Positions 9,311 to 41,618 of a stretch of DNA of 45,220 nucleotides are shown here, one piece after another. Below the pieces are notes generated by a model. That model was not told where the DNA came from. It did not search any database and saw only the letters and a program-made list of their open reading frames with translations. Source of the stretch: a virus; IMG/VR virus record IMGVR_UViG_3300010354_000006. The stretch is one strand, 5' to 3'. A program made the position numbers and the translations under genes. Every line of letters starts with the position of its first letter. Within the stretch, counting starts at the first letter, position 1.

Positions 9311-9616
9311 TTACCTTTCTCTCTGTCTTTCTTCTTTTAAAAACTCTTTAAAATTATCCTTAAGCTCATTTAAAGCAGCAATAACCATGCGAAAATTCTC
9401 TTCAATTTTAATTGTTGATTTTTCTAAGCCTTTAATATCTTTGCCCTGTTCATCAGTCCTAACTTCTAAAGCTAAAATCTTTTTATCTAAAACTTTTAAT
9501 TGTGGCTCTATGACTAAGTTGTAAAAAATAATAAGTACAGTTAATTCACCACCAATGATTGAACCAACAAGCATTAACAATTCATAGGATTTAAAGATGT
9601 ACTCTGTTTCCGTCAT
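9311..9616 (-). CDS. Membrane-anchored coiled-coil protein (101 aa)
   Basis: N-terminal hydrophobic helix then charged helical region. Confidence 0.45.
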   Translation of the reverse strand: MTETEYIFKSYELLMLVGSIIGGELTVLIIFYNLVIEPQLKVLDKKILALEVRTDEQGKDIKGLEKSTIKIEENFRMVIAALNELKDNFKEFLKEERQRER

Positions 9617-10449
9617 TTTAATACTACAGTAACACCGATTTGCTCTTCTGCTTTACCCGATAAGAAAACTTTTAATAAACCGCCTTCAACTTTAACTAAA
9701 TAATTTAAATTCTCAGGATTAACAGGTAATGAAGCACCATTCGTGTTAGACTTTATTCTGTTTTCGCCTAAAAGATTTTGTATTAAGACTCTCAGCTCAG
9801 CATCAAAAAAAGTACCTTGAGACCCCATAGCTGTAATTTGAATTAAAGCTTTGTAGTTAGACTGCTTTAATTCAAATGCTGCTACTTGGGTAAGCTCGCT
9901 GCTAATTAAAATTGTTTCTTTTGTCGGATATTCAGCACCATCTTTACCCTTTTCGCCTTGCTCGCCCTTCTCCCCTTTCTCGCCCTTTAAATCCCCTAAA
10001 TTATTTTTCCATTCTTCAAATAAAGAAGCTAATTCTTTTTTCGCAAAATCATAATCAAATTCTGCATTTAAGCCATCTTTACCATTAATGCCATCTTTAC
10101 CATCTTTACCATTAATGCCATCTTTACCATTTTTGCCATTAACACCATTCTTGCCATCAAGACCATTCAAGCCATCTTTGCCATCAAGTCCGTTTAAACC
10201 ATCCTTGCCATCAAGTCCGTTTAAACCATCTTTGCCATCAGCTCCATTTAAGCCAGCTTCCCCTTGCTCGCCCTTGTCGCCTTTTTGACCCTTGAGCTTA
10301 TCTACTTTTTTCGCTAAAAGCTTTTCAACTTCTTGATTGAAAACGTCTAAAACCCTTTCTTTTAAAGGCTCTTTAAATTCTTCGCTAAATAGTTCACCTA
10401 TTTGAACTAGTCTGTTTTCTATTTTTGCTGCACCCGCTCCGCCTAACAT
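9613..10449 (-). CDS. Collagen-like repeat protein (Gly-X-Y), probable tail fibre
   Basis: Long run of G-X-Y triplets (GKDGLNGLDGKDGLNGLDGK...) encoded by tandem DNA repeats at about 10080-10260. Confidence 0.65.
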   Translation of the reverse strand: MLGGAGAAKIENRLVQIGELFSEEFKEPLKERVLDVFNQEVEKLLAKKVDKLKGQKGDKGEQGEAGLNGADGKDGLNGLDGKDGLNGLDGKDGLNGLDGKNGVNGKNGKDGINGKDGKDGINGKDGLNAEFDYDFAKKELASLFEEWKNNLGDLKGEKGEKGEQGEKGKDGAEYPTKETILISSELTQVAAFELKQSNYKALIQITAMGSQGTFFDAELRVLIQNLLGENRIKSNTNGASLPVNPENLNYLVKVEGGLLKVFLSGKAEEQIGVTVVLK

Positions 10450-10615: not shown

Positions 10616-12252
10616 ACTAAAACTATAAGCTCCTGCATTTTTGTACTCAAATGTGATTTCAACAAAACCACATCGTATAAGTCAGTGCCATCTATAGCTA
10701 CATAAGCCGCCATTCTATTTCCTACTGCTGCCGTACCAGCTTGAATATCATCTGTCGGTGTGTAGGGAGATAAAACTCTGTTCTTTGCATCGAACCTAAA
10801 AATTTGATTAATTGCAGAAGCTACATAAGCATTAATGTACGTGAACCTACCTTCTCCATTAAATGGGGAATAAGCGGCACTTGCACCCGTTCCCATCGTA
10901 ATTACGTTGCCGTCATAAACTACTGCACCAGTCCATAAACCAGTCGTACCGCCTGCTATGTCAAGCAAGTCTAGTGTTACTGCACTTCCTCTGAAAAAGA
11001 ATAAATGCGAATGTCTAGCGTTTTTTTGTGTGTCTGGTTGGATTCCATACGCAGGACACCAAATGTTCCCAGCAGCATTAGCCGCAGGAGCAGTACCAAA
11101 AAGAGTTGTACTCCAAGTGTTCGCAGCTAAGTTAGTTGTTCCGTTGTTGTAAGCGGCATCGTTATAATTGTACGTATAAGTAGTTGTGTTTGCAGCAGTT
11201 CTTAAAACTAACAAGTTAGGATACTCTATGACATATTTAGCCGTGCTTGAAGGTTGAACAGTCCAGTTTGCACCTAATGTGTAGACAGGACTTGCACCTG
11301 CAGTATGCGAAGCAATATACGCTCTTTGATTGATTGCTGTTGGATTCGTTGTATCTTGAACTATTCTGATCTGAAAATTTCTATACTCATTCGCTAAAAC
11401 TCCAGAATCCCCACCACTAGCTTGACCAGTAATCGTGTTTGCGGTAGTTGCTGTTGCTGTTAGAGCTTTTCTTGACACTAAATTATTATCATACTCAAAA
11501 GTACCTTTGATGAATCCTTCACCTGGATTATGGTTATAAGGAGTGTATTGCTCGTCTAAAGCCACTATAGCCGAATCAGTCGCAGGAGTAGGAAGCCCAG
11601 CAGTTCCACCATTCGCTAGAGTGTTTGCAGCAACTTCGAAACTTCTAAAAGAAGTAGCCACTATAGCACCAGCACTTAGCATAAAAACTCTGCCAGCTAA
11701 AATCTCATACAAGTCTCCATTAGCTGGAGTGAATGTAAGTGCATTATCAAGTATAAAAGTTGGGGTTGTTCCTGCTGTGTTCGCTACAATAAATCTTTCT
11801 TCTACTTTTCCAGCAGCTCTGCCAATAATTCTAATTTTAAAACCATAGTCTCCAGAACCACCACGATTAGCAAGCATGTTAGCTCCTACCGCAGTAATTA
11901 CAGTTGATGTAGGAATACTTGTAGTAGTAGCTCCTGTTGTGATTGTTCCTTTAAGTCCTTGAGATGGAGCAAACACTGTTGCAGCACCAATACCAAAAGT
12001 TCCACCGAGTCCAGGGTTTATCGCTAGTGCTGAACTCTTTGTGATAATGTTAAACCTGTTGAGTGTGGCAGTGGACAGTAAATCATAAACAAAGGGATTT
12101 CTTGAAATGTCTGAGCGTAAATCTGAACATAAGCAAGCACCTGCTGCATGTGCATTTGGAGCTGGAGCTACAGGAATCCACATAGGTCTATCTATTACTT
12201 TTTTAAAATTGTTTGCCATTAACTTATTCTTCCTCTCACTATTTGAGACCAA
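10612..12252 (-). CDS. Putative virion structural protein, Gly/Thr/Ala/Asn-rich (fibre or receptor-binding-like)
   Basis: Composition and position among fibre genes; probable true start at internal MANNFKK. Confidence 0.45.
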   Translation of the reverse strand: MVSNSERKNKLMANNFKKVIDRPMWIPVAPAPNAHAAGACLCSDLRSDISRNPFVYDLLSTATLNRFNIITKSSALAINPGLGGTFGIGAATVFAPSQGLKGTITTGATTTSIPTSTVITAVGANMLANRGGSGDYGFKIRIIGRAAGKVEERFIVANTAGTTPTFILDNALTFTPANGDLYEILAGRVFMLSAGAIVATSFRSFEVAANTLANGGTAGLPTPATDSAIVALDEQYTPYNHNPGEGFIKGTFEYDNNLVSRKALTATATTANTITGQASGGDSGVLANEYRNFQIRIVQDTTNPTAINQRAYIASHTAGASPVYTLGANWTVQPSSTAKYVIEYPNLLVLRTAANTTTYTYNYNDAAYNNGTTNLAANTWSTTLFGTAPAANAAGNIWCPAYGIQPDTQKNARHSHLFFFRGSAVTLDLLDIAGGTTGLWTGAVVYDGNVITMGTGASAAYSPFNGEGRFTYINAYVASAINQIFRFDAKNRVLSPYTPTDDIQAGTAAVGNRMAAYVAIDGTDLYDVVLLKSHLSTKMQELIVLV

Positions 12253-12632
12253 GCAGTTCTTGACCCTGCATAGTTTTGAACGTCTGCGGTATAACCACCT
12301 ATGTTCGTTTGGTTTGTTAAAGTTGTTACAGTGGTTACAGTACCGATAGTATTAATCACTGCCACTCTAATCGCATTAATAGTTCTGTCTAAATAGTTAG
12401 GATATTGAAGAAACTGGGCTATGGTTTTAAGCCATGTTTCTACCCCGTTTACGATAACCTCTAAAGGTGAAGTATTGGTAATGTTTACGGGTATTGGGTT
12501 AGCAGTAGAAATATCATTAGCTACACCATCTTCACCAATAGATATTTTTACACGTTGATATTTAACTCCTGCGACTTCATCAGCCGCTATCTGTGTTCCT
12601 GAACCCTCGGTAATCGTTACGTTATCTGCCAT
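12219..12632 (-). CDS. Hypothetical structural protein (137 aa)
   Basis: ORF track. Confidence 0.4.
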   Translation of the reverse strand: MADNVTITEGSGTQIAADEVAGVKYQRVKISIGEDGVANDISTANPIPVNITNTSPLEVIVNGVETWLKTIAQFLQYPNYLDRTINAIRVAVINTIGTVTTVTTLTNQTNIGGYTADVQNYAGSRTAWSQIVRGRIS

Positions 12633-12772
12633 GTTAATTTGTGTAAGTTAAAGCCAATAAAAGCCCCATTGATTGCCCTGCTAAAGATGGAGTTTCCCCT
12701 GTTACGGCTTGCTCAATCATTAAATCCAATTCTAGGTCTAAACTATTCCCCATTACTTTAAGTTTACTCTAT

Positions 12773-13555
12773 ATGTCTTATAATAAGAACATGAGTTTAT
12801 CTAACCTGTTAGACAAGATAAAAAAAATCCCAGTTCTTAAGAAAAACGAAGAAGAAGAGTTGGCTTCTTGGTTTAATTCCAATGAATTAGCAAGACCAAT
12901 TTATGAAAAGATTTTAATTTATCATAACTTAAGATTGGCTAGGCATATTGCAAATAGATTTATAGACAGGGGTTATGAGCTAGAAGATTTAATTTCAGAA
13001 GCTGTTACAGGTTTAAAGCGTGCTGCTGAAAAGTTTAATCCAAAACTAGGCTATAGATTTAGCACTTACGCTGGGCAATGGATTAACCAACGAATCCAAA
13101 AGTTTATTCAAACTTCTTCAACGATTAAAATTCCCGTATTGAAATATTACGCAATTCAAGAGCTGCATAGCCTACTTAATGTTGAACCACTAGAGACTAT
13201 TAGAGAAAAATTAAAGCTTTCAAAAAATCAATTTAATAAATTATACCAAGCCTACTCAAGCCAATTAGTTGAGTCTATAGATGTACCTTTGAATGACCAT
13301 GAATTAATTAAAGAAAGTATCCCTTTTGCCTCAAAAGAATATGATGATCTTTCGGAAAATTTAGAATACTTCTTATCTCAAATCCCCAAAGATGAATACC
13401 CTATAGTCCTAAGTTATCTAAATCAAGAGTTTACTAAAAATAAACTATGCGAAATTTATAACTTAACCTTTATTGAATTAAATCAAATACTGAACCGCAA
13501 TGTAACCTTCTTAAAAGAATCTTTGCGAGGGGATTACGAAGCCTTAAGACTTTGA
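12773..13555 (+). CDS. Sigma-70 family RNA polymerase sigma factor
   Basis: Region 2 signature ...AAEKFNPKLGYRFSTYAGQWINQRIQKFI... (FSTYA.WWI.Q consensus) and a C-terminal helix-turn-helix-like segment. Confidence 0.75.
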   Translation: MSYNKNMSLSNLLDKIKKIPVLKKNEEEELASWFNSNELARPIYEKILIYHNLRLARHIANRFIDRGYELEDLISEAVTGLKRAAEKFNPKLGYRFSTYAGQWINQRIQKFIQTSSTIKIPVLKYYAIQELHSLLNVEPLETIREKLKLSKNQFNKLYQAYSSQLVESIDVPLNDHELIKESIPFASKEYDDLSENLEYFLSQIPKDEYPIVLSYLNQEFTKNKLCEIYNLTFIELNQILNRNVTFLKESLRGDYEALRL

Positions 13556-13864
13556 TTCAAAGAATCTTAATGTACCATCAGTAGTAGCCCTGATAACTGC
13601 TATATGCGTAATGTTTGAGTCAATACCAAAACTATATACTGCCCCTGCTGCTAGGTACGTGCTTGATGTAGTGGCTACTACCGTACTATCACCAGCTTCA
13701 ATGTAGCAGTTTTGGTCTGCTACCATTGCTGCTAAAATTCTTGTTTTTGAGTTAAATGGTGTCGCATTTCTTGCACTTGTCGCAGTAAAAGAGATTGCGT
13801 GCGTTGCTCCACCTAAAATAGCTACTGGTGTTGCTGATGTTCCTCTTGGTCCTAGTCCGCTCAT
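13544..13864 (-). CDS. Hypothetical protein (106 aa), Ala/Thr/Ser-rich
   Basis: ORF track; 3' end overlaps sigma gene 3' end. Confidence 0.4.
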   Translation of the reverse strand: MSGLGPRGTSATPVAILGGATHAISFTATSARNATPFNSKTRILAAMVADQNCYIEAGDSTVVATTSSTYLAAGAVYSFGIDSNITHIAVIRATTDGTLRFFESKS

Positions 13865-13902
13865 GTTTTAAGTTTATCTCTTTTTACCGCTCTTTTTCAT
13901 AA

Positions 13903-14172
13903 TTAACACTTCCATCTCTTTCTAGCCTTGCAAATCCTTTTTTCAGGGGTTTTAGAACAATCAATATTAAAGTCGTTCATTTGCCCTTTGCTTCTAGCAC
14001 AGTATGATTTCTTCCTAGCTCCGCCTTGTGGTTGAGGTGCTTGCAAGTTAGAACCTGTAGCTGCATTATAAGCTTTACGCCCTTTTTCTGTCAAACCGCC
14101 TTTATTAGATTTATGCTCTTTCTTGAAATTAAAGTTTTCTTTAGCTACTGCTTTGCCTTTATTTGGTTTCAT
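13903..14172 (-). CDS. Small strongly basic Lys/Arg-rich protein (89 aa)
   Basis: Composition read directly. Confidence 0.45.
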   Translation of the reverse strand: MKPNKGKAVAKENFNFKKEHKSNKGGLTEKGRKAYNAATGSNLQAPQPQGGARKKSYCARSKGQMNDFNIDCSKTPEKRICKARKRWKC

Positions 14173-14420
14173 TTCAACCCTTCTAACGCTGCTACCAAAG
14201 CGTTTTTTAAAGTCTCAGGGATTTTACCTGTTTGAAGATCTAACTCAACCTGAGCTTTAATCAGAGACAGATCTTCTTCCGTCAAACCTTCATCATCCAA
14301 GATATAAAGCTCTAAAGCTTTAGACTCTAAAAAATATTTATTCGCTATGTCGAAAAGTGGCGTACCGATTAAAGTCCTTACCAAATTTTTCATTCTAATT
14401 CTATATAACCCTTCTGTCAT
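14169..14420 (-). CDS. Hypothetical protein (83 aa)
   Basis: ORF track. Confidence 0.4.
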   Translation of the reverse strand: MTEGLYRIRMKNLVRTLIGTPLFDIANKYFLESKALELYILDDEGLTEEDLSLIKAQVELDLQTGKIPETLKNALVAALEGLK

Positions 14421-16105
14421 AATAAACCTAAAGCTCCGTTATCATTTAAACTCAACAATGTACTTGATAAAGCCATTCCTACGTACTCCCTTTGAGAGCC
14501 AGATAAACCTAAACCGCCATTAGGGCTTACGTGGTAAGCTTGTCCTGGGATTAGTCCAGAAGCTACCTGAGTACTATAACCCGAGTACATTGAGGATAGA
14601 TTAACTTTTTTTGTCTGCCCCGTAGTTCCAGATTCTGCTGCTATACCTACAGGTAAAGGGTTTGGCAGTACCCTGTTCCCGTAAACATATAATACGGAGA
14701 ACTGAACTGTAGAGCCAAATGTATTATTAATTACGACAAGTATAGGTGTATTAACCGCTCCGTTTTTAACTATGTAGTTTTTACTGTATGATTGGTAAGA
14801 ACCAAATCCGAAAGAGGATACATTGGAATAATAGTTTTGCGAAAAACTTTTTAGTTGTCTCTGCCCTATTCTTGTTACATCTAACAGTAGAGAATTTCTA
14901 TAAATTAAATCCCCGTTTATATTAAGCCTCCAGCCAGCATTAGCCAGAACAGTAGCATCAGGAAATCCGAAACTGTTCTGTCCATCTACTTCTGTAATAG
15001 TAGTTGAATTTACTGTAACTAAACGGGATTGAACACCTCCAGACTGCCCTAGAAATAAATATAGTCCTGAACTTATAGGTTCTACACTAAAACGTCCGTT
15101 AGCATCAGTTCCATAATATAAGTATTCTGCACCAGACCCTGAAAAAGCGGTGCCTGTAATGCCTCGACATAGTATAGCGGTGTCAGTGGATCCGCCTTTG
15201 CGATAACCAAAAAAGCAATTGTTGTTAGTTACATCGTGATAAAACCCTGTATCTTCAGTCGTAGCGGTCTGCCCGTTGTCTGTACCTACTCCAAGTACAG
15301 ACCCAAAAGTCATAGTAGTACCTGATACAGTACCTAAACATGCCTCGTAAGAAGAAGATCCAGCACTGTCTGTCGAATAATAAATAATGTGTTGCCCAGA
15401 TATAGTATCTACAGATAAACCTCTAATCCTACCTCTATCGTTAGTGCTTCCAGAGGCTACTATGTTGTTAGCTGAACCTACTGATATAGAAGTACCTGTT
15501 AAAGTTAAAACTCTTGTCTGTAAAGATGGGCTATCTGATCTAGCATAAACCGCTACTGCAACAGTCCCTGAATGTTTATTTATGCCGAAAGAAGTATTTC
15601 CTGAAGCTGTATTAGATACGTTAGTTGCTACCGATACCGCTGAGCCTACTGTAGGGTTAGCCCCAGATACGTCTATAGCTAAAGCACTTAGTGTATTTGT
15701 TGCTGATCTATACAGCAAAACTGCTGTAGAAGCACCTACTTCAATAAGCTTAGAGCCTAAAGGGGCTGTACCCCACGCTATACCTGTAGCTAATTCTGTA
15801 CTCCAAGTAATATCGCCTGTATTGGGATTTACAGCACCAGTTTTGATAAAGATATTCGTCCCGTTAGTATAAGCGTAAACAAGCTTATTGGTTGTTTCAT
15901 GGAAGCATATAGCACCTTTACCAGTGAATGACGGGAATAGTCGTAAATCTGCAAGTAGATCACCGTTGAGCGGTCTGCCTACTGGAGTTTTAAAAACTTG
16001 TCCATTAGCAGATAAAATTAAAGAATCCCCAGTGTTTACGTTTTCCCCTAGTACGAAATTATGCGAAGTTTTTCCGCTGCTGAATAAATCACTTGCACTT
16101 GCCAT
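14417..16105 (-). CDS. Putative tail fibre / tail spike-like protein (562 aa), Ser/Thr/Gly-rich
   Basis: Composition and position. Confidence 0.45.
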   Translation of the reverse strand: MASASDLFSSGKTSHNFVLGENVNTGDSLILSANGQVFKTPVGRPLNGDLLADLRLFPSFTGKGAICFHETTNKLVYAYTNGTNIFIKTGAVNPNTGDITWSTELATGIAWGTAPLGSKLIEVGASTAVLLYRSATNTLSALAIDVSGANPTVGSAVSVATNVSNTASGNTSFGINKHSGTVAVAVYARSDSPSLQTRVLTLTGTSISVGSANNIVASGSTNDRGRIRGLSVDTISGQHIIYYSTDSAGSSSYEACLGTVSGTTMTFGSVLGVGTDNGQTATTEDTGFYHDVTNNNCFFGYRKGGSTDTAILCRGITGTAFSGSGAEYLYYGTDANGRFSVEPISSGLYLFLGQSGGVQSRLVTVNSTTITEVDGQNSFGFPDATVLANAGWRLNINGDLIYRNSLLLDVTRIGQRQLKSFSQNYYSNVSSFGFGSYQSYSKNYIVKNGAVNTPILVVINNTFGSTVQFSVLYVYGNRVLPNPLPVGIAAESGTTGQTKKVNLSSMYSGYSTQVASGLIPGQAYHVSPNGGLGLSGSQREYVGMALSSTLLSLNDNGALGLL

Positions 16106-16830: not shown

Positions 16831-16852
16831 TCTATCTTAAGTTTACTCTAAT

Positions 16853-24500: not shown

Positions 24501-24517
24501 ATATATTAAGTATAATC

Positions 24518-28003: not shown

Positions 28004-28053
28004 ATCTTCTCCTTACTTGTCTTTAATGCTATTGTTATATTGTTAAGCAAGAA

Positions 28054-28086
28054 AAGAGAGAGGGTTTCCCCTCTCTTTTTTTTCTA
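28054..28086 (-). terminator. Rho-independent terminator immediately after the capsid gene stop
   Basis: Stem GAGAGGGG/CCCTCTCTC with T-rich tract on the minus strand. Confidence 0.5.
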
Positions 28087-29322: not shown

Positions 29323-29385
29323 TTGTGAAATATCTCCTTAGACTTGCCCCTTTCTTAAGGGGTACATCTAAAGTATATTTCTGTT

Positions 29386-33710: not shown

Positions 33711-33759
33711 GTTTAAAAATCTCCTTAAGGGTAAGTTACACTTTAAGTATATTACTATT

Positions 33760-37466: not shown

Positions 37467-38195
37467 TATACCACGATATATAAAAATATACCACTGTTAA
37501 TTTAAATATATCTCAGCGGGACTTTATCCTTCTAGCTCTCACTAGCCTGCATTGAAAACTCTAGTCTTTCGGTTTAATCACATAGATTTTTATGTGGTTA
37601 GTTATTGCTTGTTTAAATCGGTTTAAATCAATTTCTTTTTATTCTTGGGATGATTATGGCTTTAATAAGGTTTTCTTTTAACCTGTGGCAGAATAAAGGG
37701 GTTTTGTGAAGTTTTCTAGTTGGTTGTTAGGTTGGTTTATTACATTGCTGAAATTTGAAATTTTTTATGTGTAGCGAGAGGGGATGCAGTGATAATTTAA
37801 AGGGGTGGCATGGGGTAAAGGATGTTACCCGTAAATACTTTTCTGCTTTTATTACTCTAGAATTACCCTTATACAGTGCCATATTCAAGATAACATTATA
37901 TTATCTTAAGTAAGAACGTGATTGTAGAGCCATTTCAGTATGTTGTTAAAGATAATATACAGAAATTAAGGGGTAGCTACCGAGTATTGGGGGGTATCTT
38001 ATAGTGATTAATGATTGATGACTGATGATCTCTCTCTTATATATTCTTTATCGCTTGCATGTGTTACCCTGCTCGACACATTAACATCATTTCTCATTCT
38101 AAACAAAAACGAGAAACGAATAAAACTCATTCTCAGAAAGCAACTATTCAATTTTACCTACCTACTAGTAGGTAAAAGTTATACCTAACAATTAA

Positions 38196-38288
38196 GCCTA
38201 AAGTGGACTATAGGGTTTAATTAATATAAAGTCTAAAGTGGACTATAGGGTTACAGTAGTAATAAAGCCTATAGTGGACTATAGGGTT
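38196..38288. repeat. Three direct copies of a 22-bp motif GYCTAWAGTGGACTATAGGGTT (38196-38217, 38231-38252, 38267-38288)
   Basis: Read directly; 35-36 bp periodicity; adjacent 12-bp palindrome CCTACTAGTAGG at 38161-38172. Confidence 0.85.
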
Positions 38289-38516
38289 ATAAAGGCTTTC
38301 TAATCAACATTCCTTACTTATCGGCGTAACGATTAAAAACAAGCGAGGCTAGTATTAGTATCTTTTTGTTGTTTTACTTATGACATAAGACAATAGAACA
38401 TTAAATATATTTAATATATCACACCATAACTATATAATCCCTTGAAACCTAGTCCAGTAGTGCATTTCAAGGATTTATAAGTTATTTGATTGATAAAAAA
38501 ATATTTAATAAAAGTG

Positions 38517-38748: not shown

Positions 38749-38778
38749 GACCTAAGCAAGTCTTTAAACTGCTTAAGG
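38749..38778 (+). promoter_or_regulatory. Intercistronic element A copy 1 (imperfect palindrome overlapping RBS)
   Basis: GACCTAAGCAAGTCTTTAAACTGCTTAAGG; TAAGCA / TGCTTA inverted repeat. Confidence 0.6.
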
Positions 38779-38786
38779 AAAAAGAA

Positions 38787-38952: not shown

Positions 38953-38982
38953 GACCTGAGCAAGTCTTTAAACTGCTTAAGG
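38953..38982 (+). promoter_or_regulatory. Intercistronic element A copy 2
   Basis: GACCTGAGCAAGTCTTTAAACTGCTTAAGG. Confidence 0.6.
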
Positions 38983-38991
38983 AGTAAAGAA

Positions 38992-39477: not shown

Positions 39478-39483
39478 ACCAAA

Positions 39484-39512
39484 GACCTAGCAAGTCTTAA
39501 AACTGCTTCAGG
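39484..39512 (+). promoter_or_regulatory. Intercistronic element A copy 3
   Basis: GACCTAGCAAGTCTTAAAACTGCTTCAGG. Confidence 0.55.
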
Positions 39513-39522
39513 AGATAAAAAA

Positions 39523-39936: not shown

Positions 39937-40003
39937 AACTATCAGCTAACCGATTCTACACCATCTCAACGGCATGGTGTAGAACTGGTAAGCACCAGTT
40001 AAA
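39937..40003 (+). ncRNA. Intercistronic element B copy 1: conserved leader, 11-bp stem hairpin (39954-39964 / 39974-39984), second short hairpin, then RBS
   Basis: TTCTACACCAT / ATGGTGTAGAA perfect stem; ACTGGT-AAGC-ACCAGT second hairpin. Confidence 0.55.
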
Positions 40004-40023: not shown

Positions 40024-40707
40024 ATGAATAACTACATAGGTGTCTTAATAAAAAGAAAAAATGGCATATTGACTAATGCTACTTGCTTAGGAATAAGAGA
40101 GTTAATTAAGAACAATAGCCATAACTCGGTATGGTTACAAGCAAATGGTAAATGTTCTTACGGACACTATGCTAAAAAGCATACTGATGGTTATCTATAT
40201 AGCCATGAAGAGTATACGGATAATTGGGATGGTGCAGTATATTCAACAACATTAAAATATTATCCTACCAGTAAACCAGTTCAAATGACAAAATGGCAAC
40301 TAGAAAGAGATCAGATTGAAAAGAAAGAAGATTTACTAGAATCAGCTAAGATATTTTTACGTAACTTGAGCAAAGAATTAATAGAAATAGAAAAATTCAA
40401 TCAGCTAGTATCTGAAGGAATTAAGCAAGATAAAAAAATAACGGGTAGTGAATTAGTATTTTTAGCTGATTACTACAAGGTAGATATTCCCATTAGAACT
40501 CGTGGTTATTATTTAAATAAATTACACAGGGTAACAGCTACTGAGATTAAAGATAAAGAAGTTTCAAGGATTAGTTACCTTGCTGAAGGTAAATTAAATA
40601 GAGATATTCTTTATAGAACATTAGATTTGATCATAAATGAAATGTATCCAGAAGAGGTTACAGTAAAAGAGCAAGAAACTTTCAATCGATTATTTAAAGT
40701 TGCATAG
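40024..40707 (+). CDS. Hypothetical early protein (227 aa)
   Basis: ORF track. Confidence 0.5.
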   Translation: MNNYIGVLIKRKNGILTNATCLGIRELIKNNSHNSVWLQANGKCSYGHYAKKHTDGYLYSHEEYTDNWDGAVYSTTLKYYPTSKPVQMTKWQLERDQIEKKEDLLESAKIFLRNLSKELIEIEKFNQLVSEGIKQDKKITGSELVFLADYYKVDIPIRTRGYYLNKLHRVTATEIKDKEVSRISYLAEGKLNRDILYRTLDLIINEMYPEEVTVKEQETFNRLFKVA

Positions 40708-40776
40708 AACTATCATCAAGCTAACCGCTTCTAGCATATCTAATAGCATATGCTGGAACTGGTTATCACCAGATAA
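40708..40776 (+). ncRNA. Intercistronic element B copy 2: same architecture, stem 40729-40739 / 40748-40758 with compensatory changes
   Basis: TTCTAGCATAT / ATATGCTGGAA (one G-U wobble); CTGGT-TATC-ACCAG. Confidence 0.55.
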
Positions 40777-40791
40777 AGGAAAAAGGAAAAA

Positions 40792-41215: not shown

Positions 41216-41536
41216 ATGACAACAATGGAACACACAATAAAAACAACAATAGAAACTATCGAAGGCGTAAGCGATTACAGCTTATTCGCAGTGGACGAAG
41301 CAATTGACTCGCTGGAATTCCAAAAAAGATTAAGTTATGGCTATGCCAAAAATAAACTTAATTTTGAAATAGATTTAATTAATTACTTTAAAAGTCATCC
41401 AAATTTCAACAATATGTGGAACTGTTATAGCTTTGATGAGGAGGACAGCGAAGAGCCAATTAACGTAGAATTTGAATTTGAATTTGAGCTGGAAGATTTA
41501 CCGCAACACTTGCAAGATGGTTACGAAAGTTTTTAG
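41216..41536 (+). CDS. Small highly acidic protein (106 aa) with EFEFEFELED tract
   Basis: Composition read directly. Confidence 0.45.
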   Translation: MTTMEHTIKTTIETIEGVSDYSLFAVDEAIDSLEFQKRLSYGYAKNKLNFEIDLINYFKSHPNFNNMWNCYSFDEEDSEEPINVEFEFEFELEDLPQHLQDGYESF

Positions 41537-41605
41537 AACTATCATCAAGCTAACCGATTCTAGCACTTACTAATCCAAGTGCTGGAACTGGTTATCACCA
41601 GATAT
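41537..41605 (+). ncRNA. Intercistronic element B copy 3: stem 41558-41568 / 41577-41587 with compensatory changes
   Basis: TTCTAGCACTT / AAGTGCTGGAA (one G-U wobble); CTGGT-TATC-ACCAG. Confidence 0.55.
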
Positions 41606-41618
41606 AGGAAAAAAACAA

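Follow-up and report, generated by a model that had tools for sequence, protein, structure and literature searches.

Why should a phage carry the gene for an RNA polymerase sigma factor alone on one strand, in the midst of late structural genes that are read from the other? The question is raised by IMG/VR virus record IMGVR_UViG_3300010354_000006, a stretch of 45,220 nucleotides (nt) that is referred to here, over its whole length, as the window, and in which a plus-strand gene ending at position 13555 encodes a protein of the sigma-70 family. For a phage, encoding its own sigma factor is one of the classic routes to control of host RNA polymerase (RNAP). With a sigma homologue in about 13% of phage genomes (PMC9429907), the mere presence of such a gene is unsurprising. 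What stands out is the isolated lineage to which it belongs, the degenerate -35-recognition helix of its product and an unusual, conserved gene arrangement. The results below identify the protein as a genuine but very divergent member of the sigma-70 family, and we favour, as its probable role, the redirection of host RNAP to the late genes.

The first 123 bases of the window are repeated at its end, and this 123-base-pair (bp) terminal repeat indicates a complete, circularly assembled phage genome of ~45.1 kilobases (kb), with a G+C content of 35.8%. Its content is likewise that of a complete phage, with terminase, portal-like and tail-fibre genes. The genome is organised as two arms. The early arm occupies the plus strand from ~38.0 kb across the junction to 8.5 kb and encodes an ERF recombinase, a Gp157/Gam-like protein, a lysozyme, a DnaB/DUF3987 helicase and an M15 peptidase. 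The late arm runs on the minus strand from 37.9 kb down to 8.7 kb, and its products include the large terminase, a portal-like protein of 756 amino acids (aa), a putative capsid protein, an 1871-aa protein and a collagen-like tail fibre. Neither an RNAP nor an integrase was found among the phage proteins scanned, and the larger of these proteins contained no RNAP or other recognisable transcription factor besides the sigma. The genome has no tRNA genes, and no Rfam family was detected anywhere in the window. Close cultured relatives were not found: a megablast search with positions 12000-14500 gave no match among GenBank phages, nor did a tblastn search with the putative capsid protein, the best GenBank phage matches of the large terminase were at most 30% identical, and nothing close to the genome was present among 50,697 GenBank phage records.

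A divergent sigma-70-family protein encoded within the late arm

An earlier sequence-only reading of this locus had described a 260-aa open reading frame (ORF) at 12773-13555 on the plus strand as the sole plus-strand gene in a 29-kb minus-strand block. The ORF exists as described, and no other non-shadow plus-strand ORF was present in 8743-37888. Comparison with related loci (designated by L numbers) moved its start. In L002 and L004, whose proteins are 91% and 76% identical to this one, the equivalent of ATG 12773 is either out of frame or followed by a stop, and ATG 12791 (MSLS...) is common to all lineages; we therefore take ATG 12791, not ATG 12773, as the conserved start. The sigma gene so defined (12791-13555, plus strand) encodes 254 aa, which is the length of most database members, and is extendable to ATG 12773 in this genome only.

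The claim of a clear sigma region 2, and the profile search proposed to check it, were borne out. The Pfam Sigma70_r2 hidden Markov model (HMM; PF04542) matched residues 49-113, which include FSTYAGQWINQRIQ, with an expectation value (E) of 6.4e-14 and 51.9 bits against a cutoff of 24. NCBIfam TIGR02937, the model for the sigma-70 superfamily, scored 61.8 bits against a cutoff of 42.9 over residues 48-250, and PHROG 351 ('RNA polymerase sigma factor') matched residues 11-250 with E=4e-35; the only other PHROG match was 21612, a generic sigma factor family. Solved sigmaS and sigmaA chains were matched by phmmer down to E=4e-19, in alignments that ran from region 1.2 into region 4.1.

Region 2 was, however, the only region that Pfam detected. 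Regions 1.2, 3 and 4 remained below threshold even when each segment was searched alone, with region 1.2 scoring only E=0.02. The Sigma70_r4 search that had been proposed alongside that for region 2 came back empty: neither Sigma70_r4 nor r4_2 was detected on the isolated C-terminus, even at E<=10. Region 4 was recovered only through full-length models, profile-profile alignment and a structure model, and region 3 only through the last two of these. In the profile-profile comparison (hhalign), a profile of the clade could be aligned to one of cellular sigmas at a probability of 99.8%, the 238 aligned columns beginning in region 1.2 and reaching the far end of region 4.2. The AlphaFold (AF2) model had a mean predicted local distance difference test score (pLDDT) of 76.5, in which sigma2 and sigma4 exceeded 85 and values under 50 were confined to the expected 3.2 linker. 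Its helices match sigma2, sigma3 and sigma4, and region 4 is modelled as three or four helices at a pLDDT of 85-92. In Foldseek searches the model aligned over its entire length to holoenzyme-bound sigmaS/sigmaA (E~1e-9), and predicted structures of 44 viral sigma factors were also matched. The protein thus appears to have the layout of region 1.2, regions 2.1-2.4, region 3, the 3.2 linker and a divergent region 4, and HMMs, hhalign and the structure model all back the assignment of a phage-encoded sigma-70-family factor.

Within regions 2.1-2.4, N52, R54, L55, F96, S97, T98, Y99, A100, W103 and Q106 are invariant with cellular sigmas. The fold of region 4 is there, but its 4.2 recognition helix reads TFIELNQI, against TRERVRQI in cellular sigmas, and has lost the basic DNA-contact residues; the positions replaced are those that we take to be equivalent to R584/E585/R586/R588. 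Replacements are also found at the presumed region 3.0 equivalents of H455/E458, the positions of extended -10 recognition, and a glutamine stands at what we take, from the alignment, to be the position of W433 in E. coli sigma70. We conclude from these comparisons that this is apparently a complete sigma, with an intact apparatus for -10 recognition and melting and a -35 reading head that resembles no characterised type.

Such a mixture could also be expected of a sigma-like protein that binds RNAP without initiating, either as a competitor or decoy that displaces or blocks host sigma in host shut-off, or as a sponge that titrates a host anti-sigma or a defence sensor. The lost basic residues of region 4.2, the undetectable Pfam regions 3 and 4 and the glutamine at the presumed W433 position all agree with this possibility. 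However, it is hard to reconcile with invariance of precisely those residues that bind core and recognise and melt the -10 element (N52, R54, L55, F96-A100, W103 and Q106), or with a full sigma3/sigma4 fold in which sigma4 is modelled at high confidence; moreover, the W433 position commonly varies in alternative sigmas. We consider a non-initiating role very improbable.

No established subfamily accommodated the protein. Its best hit, the RpoS equivalog TIGR02394, reached 87 bits against a cutoff of 378.7. The second best, the MzaA equivalog, reached 85.8 bits against 800 and involved the sigma part of that model only (positions 460-687); MzaA is the sigma of the MZA anti-phage system and has a ~726-aa architecture. 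Cyanobacterial RpoD (TIGR02997) scored 82.5 against 384.5 and RpoD_Cterm 75 against 354. Group 3 sigmas are resembled in size and domain layout, but their cutoffs were not reached either (TIGR02980 SigBFG, 61.4 against 234; RpoH, 70-73 against 241-323). The two-domain architecture of group 4, the extracytoplasmic function (ECF) sigmas, does not match, since both an N-terminus resembling region 1.2 and, at residues ~122-162, a helical domain like sigma3 were aligned and modelled. Nor did the protein group with T4 gp55: no gp55-type Pfam family was reported for it, and its PHROG matches were those given above.

An isolated lineage under purifying selection

Between diverged lineage pairs the ratio of non-synonymous to synonymous substitution rates (dN/dS) of the sigma gene was 0.03-0.13 at dS ~0.8-1.6, low values at high dS that indicate strong purifying selection. 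A word-indexed search of 5.8e9 proteins returned three clusters, at 98%, 90% and 76% identity, and then none above ~36%. Similarly, HMMER against 1.84e9 representatives returned, below E=1e-30, only the protein's own 50% cluster and one fragment. With at most 36% identity to any cellular sigma, and a clade that amounts to one 50% cluster, the gene is not a recent capture from a host. It is a core gene in every relative whose sequence covers the region and, together with the convergent 106-aa gene that follows it, was shown to form a fixed two-gene cassette in a small clade of uncultivated ~40-45 kb phages.

In the search for a host, a scan of genome contigs returned a Melainabacteria sigma at 23% identity and nothing else. 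A metagenome scan based on the clade alignment was abandoned, its patterns being too degenerate; it returned one unrelated 408-aa sigma of cellular type. A 39% relative of the 106-aa protein was considered as a clue to the host and rejected, because it lies on a bacterial contig with a GC content of 45%, mismatched with the phage.

An auxiliary, host-directed sigma might reprogramme some of the genes that its host regulates in stress, stationary phase or dormancy, as has been proposed for SigF/SigG-like sigmas of Bacillus phages, and leave the late genes to be read by host sigma. The best sequence and structure matches are indeed RpoS and group-1/2 sigmas, and the best viral structural match is SigF of Bacillus phage Eldridge; SigF/SigG-like factors of Bacillus phages can act on host sporulation networks, and one of them may be non-essential (PMC9429907). 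However, neither RpoS nor SigBFG came near its equivalog cutoff, no host type has a -35 recognition helix like this one, and the identity ceiling of 36% and the single 50% cluster among 1.84e9 representatives set the protein apart from cellular sigmas. Furthermore, the gene is core in every relative that covers the region and encodes the sole transcription factor recognised in a genome without detectable RNAP. An auxiliary role of this kind therefore seems unlikely to us.

A strand-specific motif ahead of late genes

Promoter motif discovery upstream of late genes had been suggested as a further check, and the motif TAWACTTWA was found at six conserved intergenic sites of the late arm, all on the minus strand. 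The sequence TAAACTTAA occurs at three of them: at 12758-12766 (context AGAGTAAACTTAAAgtaATG), upstream of a small ORF and back-to-back with a TATAAT at the start of the sigma gene, 12 bp away; at 13868-13876 (context AGAGATAAACTTAAAacATG), directly upstream of the 106-aa gene; and at 16837-16845, upstream of a 240-aa gene. The variant TATACTTAA is found at 24506-24514, upstream of a 393-aa gene and with a counterpart at position 737 of L014, and again at 33743-33751, in the intergenic stretch that separates the large terminase gene from a 199-aa gene. Finally, TATACTTTA at 29369-29377 lies upstream of the 411-aa gene for the putative major capsid protein, and the leader that comes after it contains a hairpin and a Shine-Dalgarno sequence.

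It is the placement of the motif that is striking. Of the 11 exact hits in the genome, eight belong to the late arm and read along its late strand, and six of these eight fall in intergenic gaps, which make up 1.8% of the arm (binomial P~2e-9). The motif precedes the 106-aa and 240-aa genes in all lineages, and sites are kept at orthologous positions in L002, L004, L005, L014, L020, L021, L023 and L026. Between the motif and the start codon there are anything from 6 to ~45 nt, a spread that favours an element of promoter type over a signal for ribosome binding. Good conservation at low copy number is typical of the promoters that phage sigma factors use (PMC4331800), and we regard TAWACTTWA as a candidate cognate promoter of the phage sigma. 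The hexamer TAWACT could also be readable by host sigmaA, which would suit the auxiliary role discussed above.

A longer form of the motif was tried and rejected: the 11-mer TTTAAGTTTAC with 2 mismatches occurred at chance level (52 against 51 expected), so that only the exact core, specific in strand and position, is meaningful. The sites ahead of the capsid-like and 199-aa genes (29323-29385 and 33711-33759, minus strand) share an extended arrangement, TTGMAT-N14-TATACTTWAGWTGTA, followed by a CCCTTAAG-containing leader with a hairpin or palindrome and a strong Shine-Dalgarno sequence; this arrangement is conserved in L019-L026.

A promoter-like block at the start of the sigma gene

The sigma gene had been said to diverge from its late-strand neighbour through a 140-bp spacer (12633-12772). 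The span is there, but it is not empty, as a small conserved minus-strand ORF occupies 12634-12753 (39 aa here, 15-52 aa in relatives). We read this ORF as coding because its indel in the 98% relatives L001 and L005 is an in-frame one of 3 bp, because its N-terminus (MxNxLDLELDLM) is kept through synonymous substitutions, and because its stop abuts the start of the following 137-aa gene (TAAcATG). The true gap between the divergent starts is therefore 37 bp, at 12754-12790.

Across five lineages (the window, L005, L002, L014 and L004) whose synonymous sites are nearly saturated (dS ~1-1.5), this gap shows neither substitutions nor indels. The block from TTTAAGTTTA to ATGAG is unchanged in all five, although L004 is unrelated immediately upstream. 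It contains an invariant TATAAT at 12779-12784 on the plus strand, 6 nt upstream of ATG 12791, which is a candidate -10 element for the sigma gene's own promoter. A weak -35-like hexamer, TTTAAG, lies 16 bp further upstream at 12757-12762 (plus strand) and overlaps the minus-strand motif. No Shine-Dalgarno sequence precedes ATG 12791, and the closeness of the TATAAT to this codon suggests that the sigma messenger RNA (mRNA) may be leaderless.

Consensus sigma-70 promoters are not enriched genome-wide (14, against ~32 in shuffled sequences). One perfect TTGACA-18-TATAAT lies within the DUF6321 gene at 14065-14094 on the minus strand, pointing towards the 106-aa gene and antisense to sigma. We rejected it as a promoter: it encodes the conserved peptide LTEKGRKAYN and has decayed synonymously to TTAACA...TACAAT in L014, and is thus probably coincidental. 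A second perfect consensus, at 1544-1573 on the plus strand, lies in a true intergenic gap ahead of the Gp157-like gene.

Neighbouring genes and the convergent overlap

At its 3' end the sigma gene was reported to overlap the convergent gene 13544-13864 by 12 bp. This overlap (13544-13555), between the stop-proximal coding ends of the two genes, is present in the window, and all the related loci examined (L001, L002, L004-L010 and L014-L016) have it in the same geometry. No intrinsic terminator and no RNA structure or hairpin above chance was found at the overlap, nor at the 5' end of the sigma gene (z ~0).

The convergent gene (minus strand) encodes a clade-restricted 106-aa protein and is conserved together with sigma. 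Its dN/dS was 0.10-0.16 in diverged pairs; the value of 0.34 in the near-identical pair of the window and L005 comes from too few substitutions to inform. The protein is beta-rich and had no Pfam or PHROG hit, and its model (pLDDT 50.5) was too poor for a fold search. We considered whether it might be an anti-sigma or a gp33-like co-factor and dropped both ideas for lack of evidence. On the other side of sigma, the 137-aa gene (12219-12632, minus strand) has no family hit and is the first distal tail-fibre-region gene downstream of sigma on the late strand.

When related loci were aligned to the window by blastn, the conserved block was essentially sigma plus the 106-aa gene, with flanking genes replaced. 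In L005 (8128-9010) and at equivalent places in L006-L010, HNH_3 and Endonuclease_7 genes of homing-endonuclease type adjoin the pair; their place in the window is taken by DUF6321 and by genes of 83 and 562 aa, which marks the neighbourhood as a hotspot where genes are exchanged. Between sigma and the convergent endolysin gene that ends the early arm there are seven late-strand genes in the window, but no more than two (133 and 161 aa) in L014-L016. Close to the endolysin gene, an 81-aa protein with a weak hit to the Acb2/Tad1-hairpin (anti-defence) Pfam family is encoded in L014 (13514-13759) and L016 (5902-6147).

Does the reversed orientation then carry any regulatory meaning? It may be that sigma belongs to early-arm transcription, that late tail-fibre genes were inserted between the two, and that the overlap reflects compaction. 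Sigma and the early arm are on the same strand, the number of intervening late-strand genes falls to two in L014-L016, and the neighbourhood is a variable hotspot that has HNH and Endonuclease VII genes in relatives. In opposition to this, the promoter-like block at the sigma start is invariant in all lineages, including L004 with its unrelated upstream sequence, and both the overlap and the spacings to the two flanking late-strand motifs are fixed in all lineages. We regard an orientation without meaning as a serious possibility, though less likely than not. It touches only the idea of a switch and is compatible with a late-gene function of the sigma.

A proposed model for late transcription

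Redirection of host RNAP by the phage sigma is plausible because no phage RNAP was detected and because a conserved, low-copy, strand-specific motif lies upstream of late genes. In the model that we favour, the sigma gene would be read by host holoenzyme from its own promoter, TTTAAG-16-TATAAT, in the 37-bp gap, giving a leaderless mRNA that is transcribed independently of the surrounding late operon. The protein would bind host core RNAP and direct it to late-strand promoters with the candidate consensus (A)GAr-TAWACTTWA, a -10-like TAnnnT element with no common -35. A motif lacking a -35 fits a protein that has retained the -10 recognition and melting residues and whose region 4.2 helix is without basic residues. 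The six TAWACTTWA sites would head the head, tail and fibre genes.

Two of these sites may also act back on sigma. From site 13876, late transcription would be sent antisense through the sigma gene, with no intervening terminator. At site 12766, only 12 bp from the sigma -10, two polymerases would be unable to bind together. Both sites would then limit sigma synthesis once late transcription runs, and the conserved layout predicts negative feedback through promoter occlusion and antisense transcription. The antisense switch suggested by the sequence-only reading thus fits the anatomy of the locus, which permits it through the missing terminator, the conserved overlap and the conserved promoter spacing.

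Several observations weigh against parts of this model. The total number of TAWACTTWA hits is not above chance (11, against 8.0 expected), and only their placement is significant. TAWACT is also a sequence that host sigmaA accepts as a -10, and the motif could therefore be read by the host, or else bound by another factor. Four of the six sites are 6-9 nt from the start codon, and one of these starts is a GTG, which is poor for leaderless translation. The -35 of the sigma promoter matches the consensus at 3/6 positions and falls under the promoter-scan threshold, and a clear Shine-Dalgarno sequence is lacking in ~40% of the genome's genes, making its absence weak evidence for leaderless mRNAs; we therefore rejected it as a marker of leaderless genes. 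With the basic residues of region 4.2 gone, it could be that the protein does not initiate at all. Finally, the timing and targets of the phage sigma are inferred from sequence alone.

On balance, we consider it probable, though far from assured, that the protein acts as a late-gene sigma that redirects host RNAP to the late genes. The complete self-limiting switch, compact and conserved in spacing to the exact base pair, in which a leaderless, host-read sigma mRNA, -35-less AGAr-TAWACTTWA promoters, leaderless or near-leaderless late mRNAs from several of these promoters and shut-off by occlusion and terminator-free antisense transcription would all operate together, is a good deal more speculative, and we doubt that it holds in all its parts.

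Other features of the genome

The divergent control region between the arms contains three tandem 35-bp repeats (38191-38296), each with the inverted repeat CCTATAGTCCACTATAGG, which could be an operator or origin iterons. Directly 5' of early plus-strand genes, GACCTRAGCAAGTCTTTAAACTGCTTAAGGA occurs three times (38749-38780, 38953-38984 and 39483-39514; families D3/D8), and is possibly a common 5' untranslated region or regulatory element. An intergenic hairpin, GAACTGGT-tatc-ACCAG, is repeated at 39982-40003, 40756-40777 and 41585-41606 (families D4/D6), followed each time by an A-rich Shine-Dalgarno region ahead of one of three early genes; within these hairpin regions, an 80-nt repeat pairs 40705-40784 with 41534-41613.

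On the minus strand, the collagen-like tail-fibre gene (9613-10449) contains a 9-nt periodic repeat array of 15 copies (family D1). A strong intrinsic terminator, AGAGAGGG-gaaa-CCCTCTCT with a T-run, is located at 28004-28086, right after the 411-aa putative major capsid gene.

Comparison with known systems

In function, the nearest parallels are phiEco32 gp36 and the sigma of phage 7-11 (Kuravirus group), T4 gp55 and SPO1 gp28/gp34. Like the protein described here, phiEco32 gp36 and the 7-11 sigma are each a single sigma-70-family factor in a medium-sized phage without an RNAP of its own. In those two phages, early genes are read by host sigma, and a few highly conserved, low-copy middle and late promoters by the phage sigma; an anti-sigma or RNAP inhibitor is encoded as well, and the sigma gene is co-oriented within the early/functional cluster (PMC4331800). 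In the present genome no inhibitor was recognised, the tail-fibre region houses the sigma gene in reverse orientation, and regions 1.2 and 3 are part of its product. A specific sequence relationship to either factor was not found, apart from shared membership of the general family (PHROG 351).

In phage SPO1, gp28 and gp33/gp34 form a temporal switch from host sigmaA to phage sigma factors (PMC13401047). That phage has a cascade of sigmas in a large genome, as opposed to one sigma in 45 kb here. The closest phage proteins by sequence and fold are the rpoD-like protein of Microcystis phage MaAM05 (29.7% identity over 92% of the query) and SigF of Bacillus phage Eldridge. Both are three-domain sigmas, as is the protein described here, but identity is at most 30% and no NCBIfam subfamily cutoff was reached. 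Phages of the MaAM05 and Eldridge type are jumbo or large myoviruses of 150-270 kb, in contrast to 45 kb here, and the sigmas of those large phages may be auxiliary (PMC9429907). Among cellular factors, RpoS and the other group-2 sigmas are the best sequence and structure matches, the resemblance extending from region 1.2 to region 4.2, with no region 1.1.

In promoter recognition, the -35-less candidate motif matches that of T4 gp55. This late sigma, whose partners are gp33 and the sliding clamp, reads just a -10-type element (TATAAATA) and uses no -35; it is a minimal sigma2-like protein without sigma3 or sigma4. The putative -35-less recognition is thus similar, although the phage sigma described here has all domains, and the genome gave no evidence of a gp33-like partner.

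Each device of the proposed switch has a precedent. The phi29 A2c/A3 pair consists of closely spaced divergent early and late promoters that exclude each other; lambda PRM-cI provides a regulator translated from a leaderless mRNA; and lambda oop and paQ are antisense RNAs that damp a regulator. None of these precedents involves a sigma gene, and in the present locus all three devices are deduced from the DNA. The value of the system lies in its being a small and clean test case, with one isolated sigma, a 45-kb genome without detectable RNAP and six candidate cognate promoters. If the model is correct, it would provide a new orthogonal sigma/promoter pair, and would add to the known repertoire a full-length phage sigma that is independent of the -35 element and an antisense switch centred on a sigma gene.

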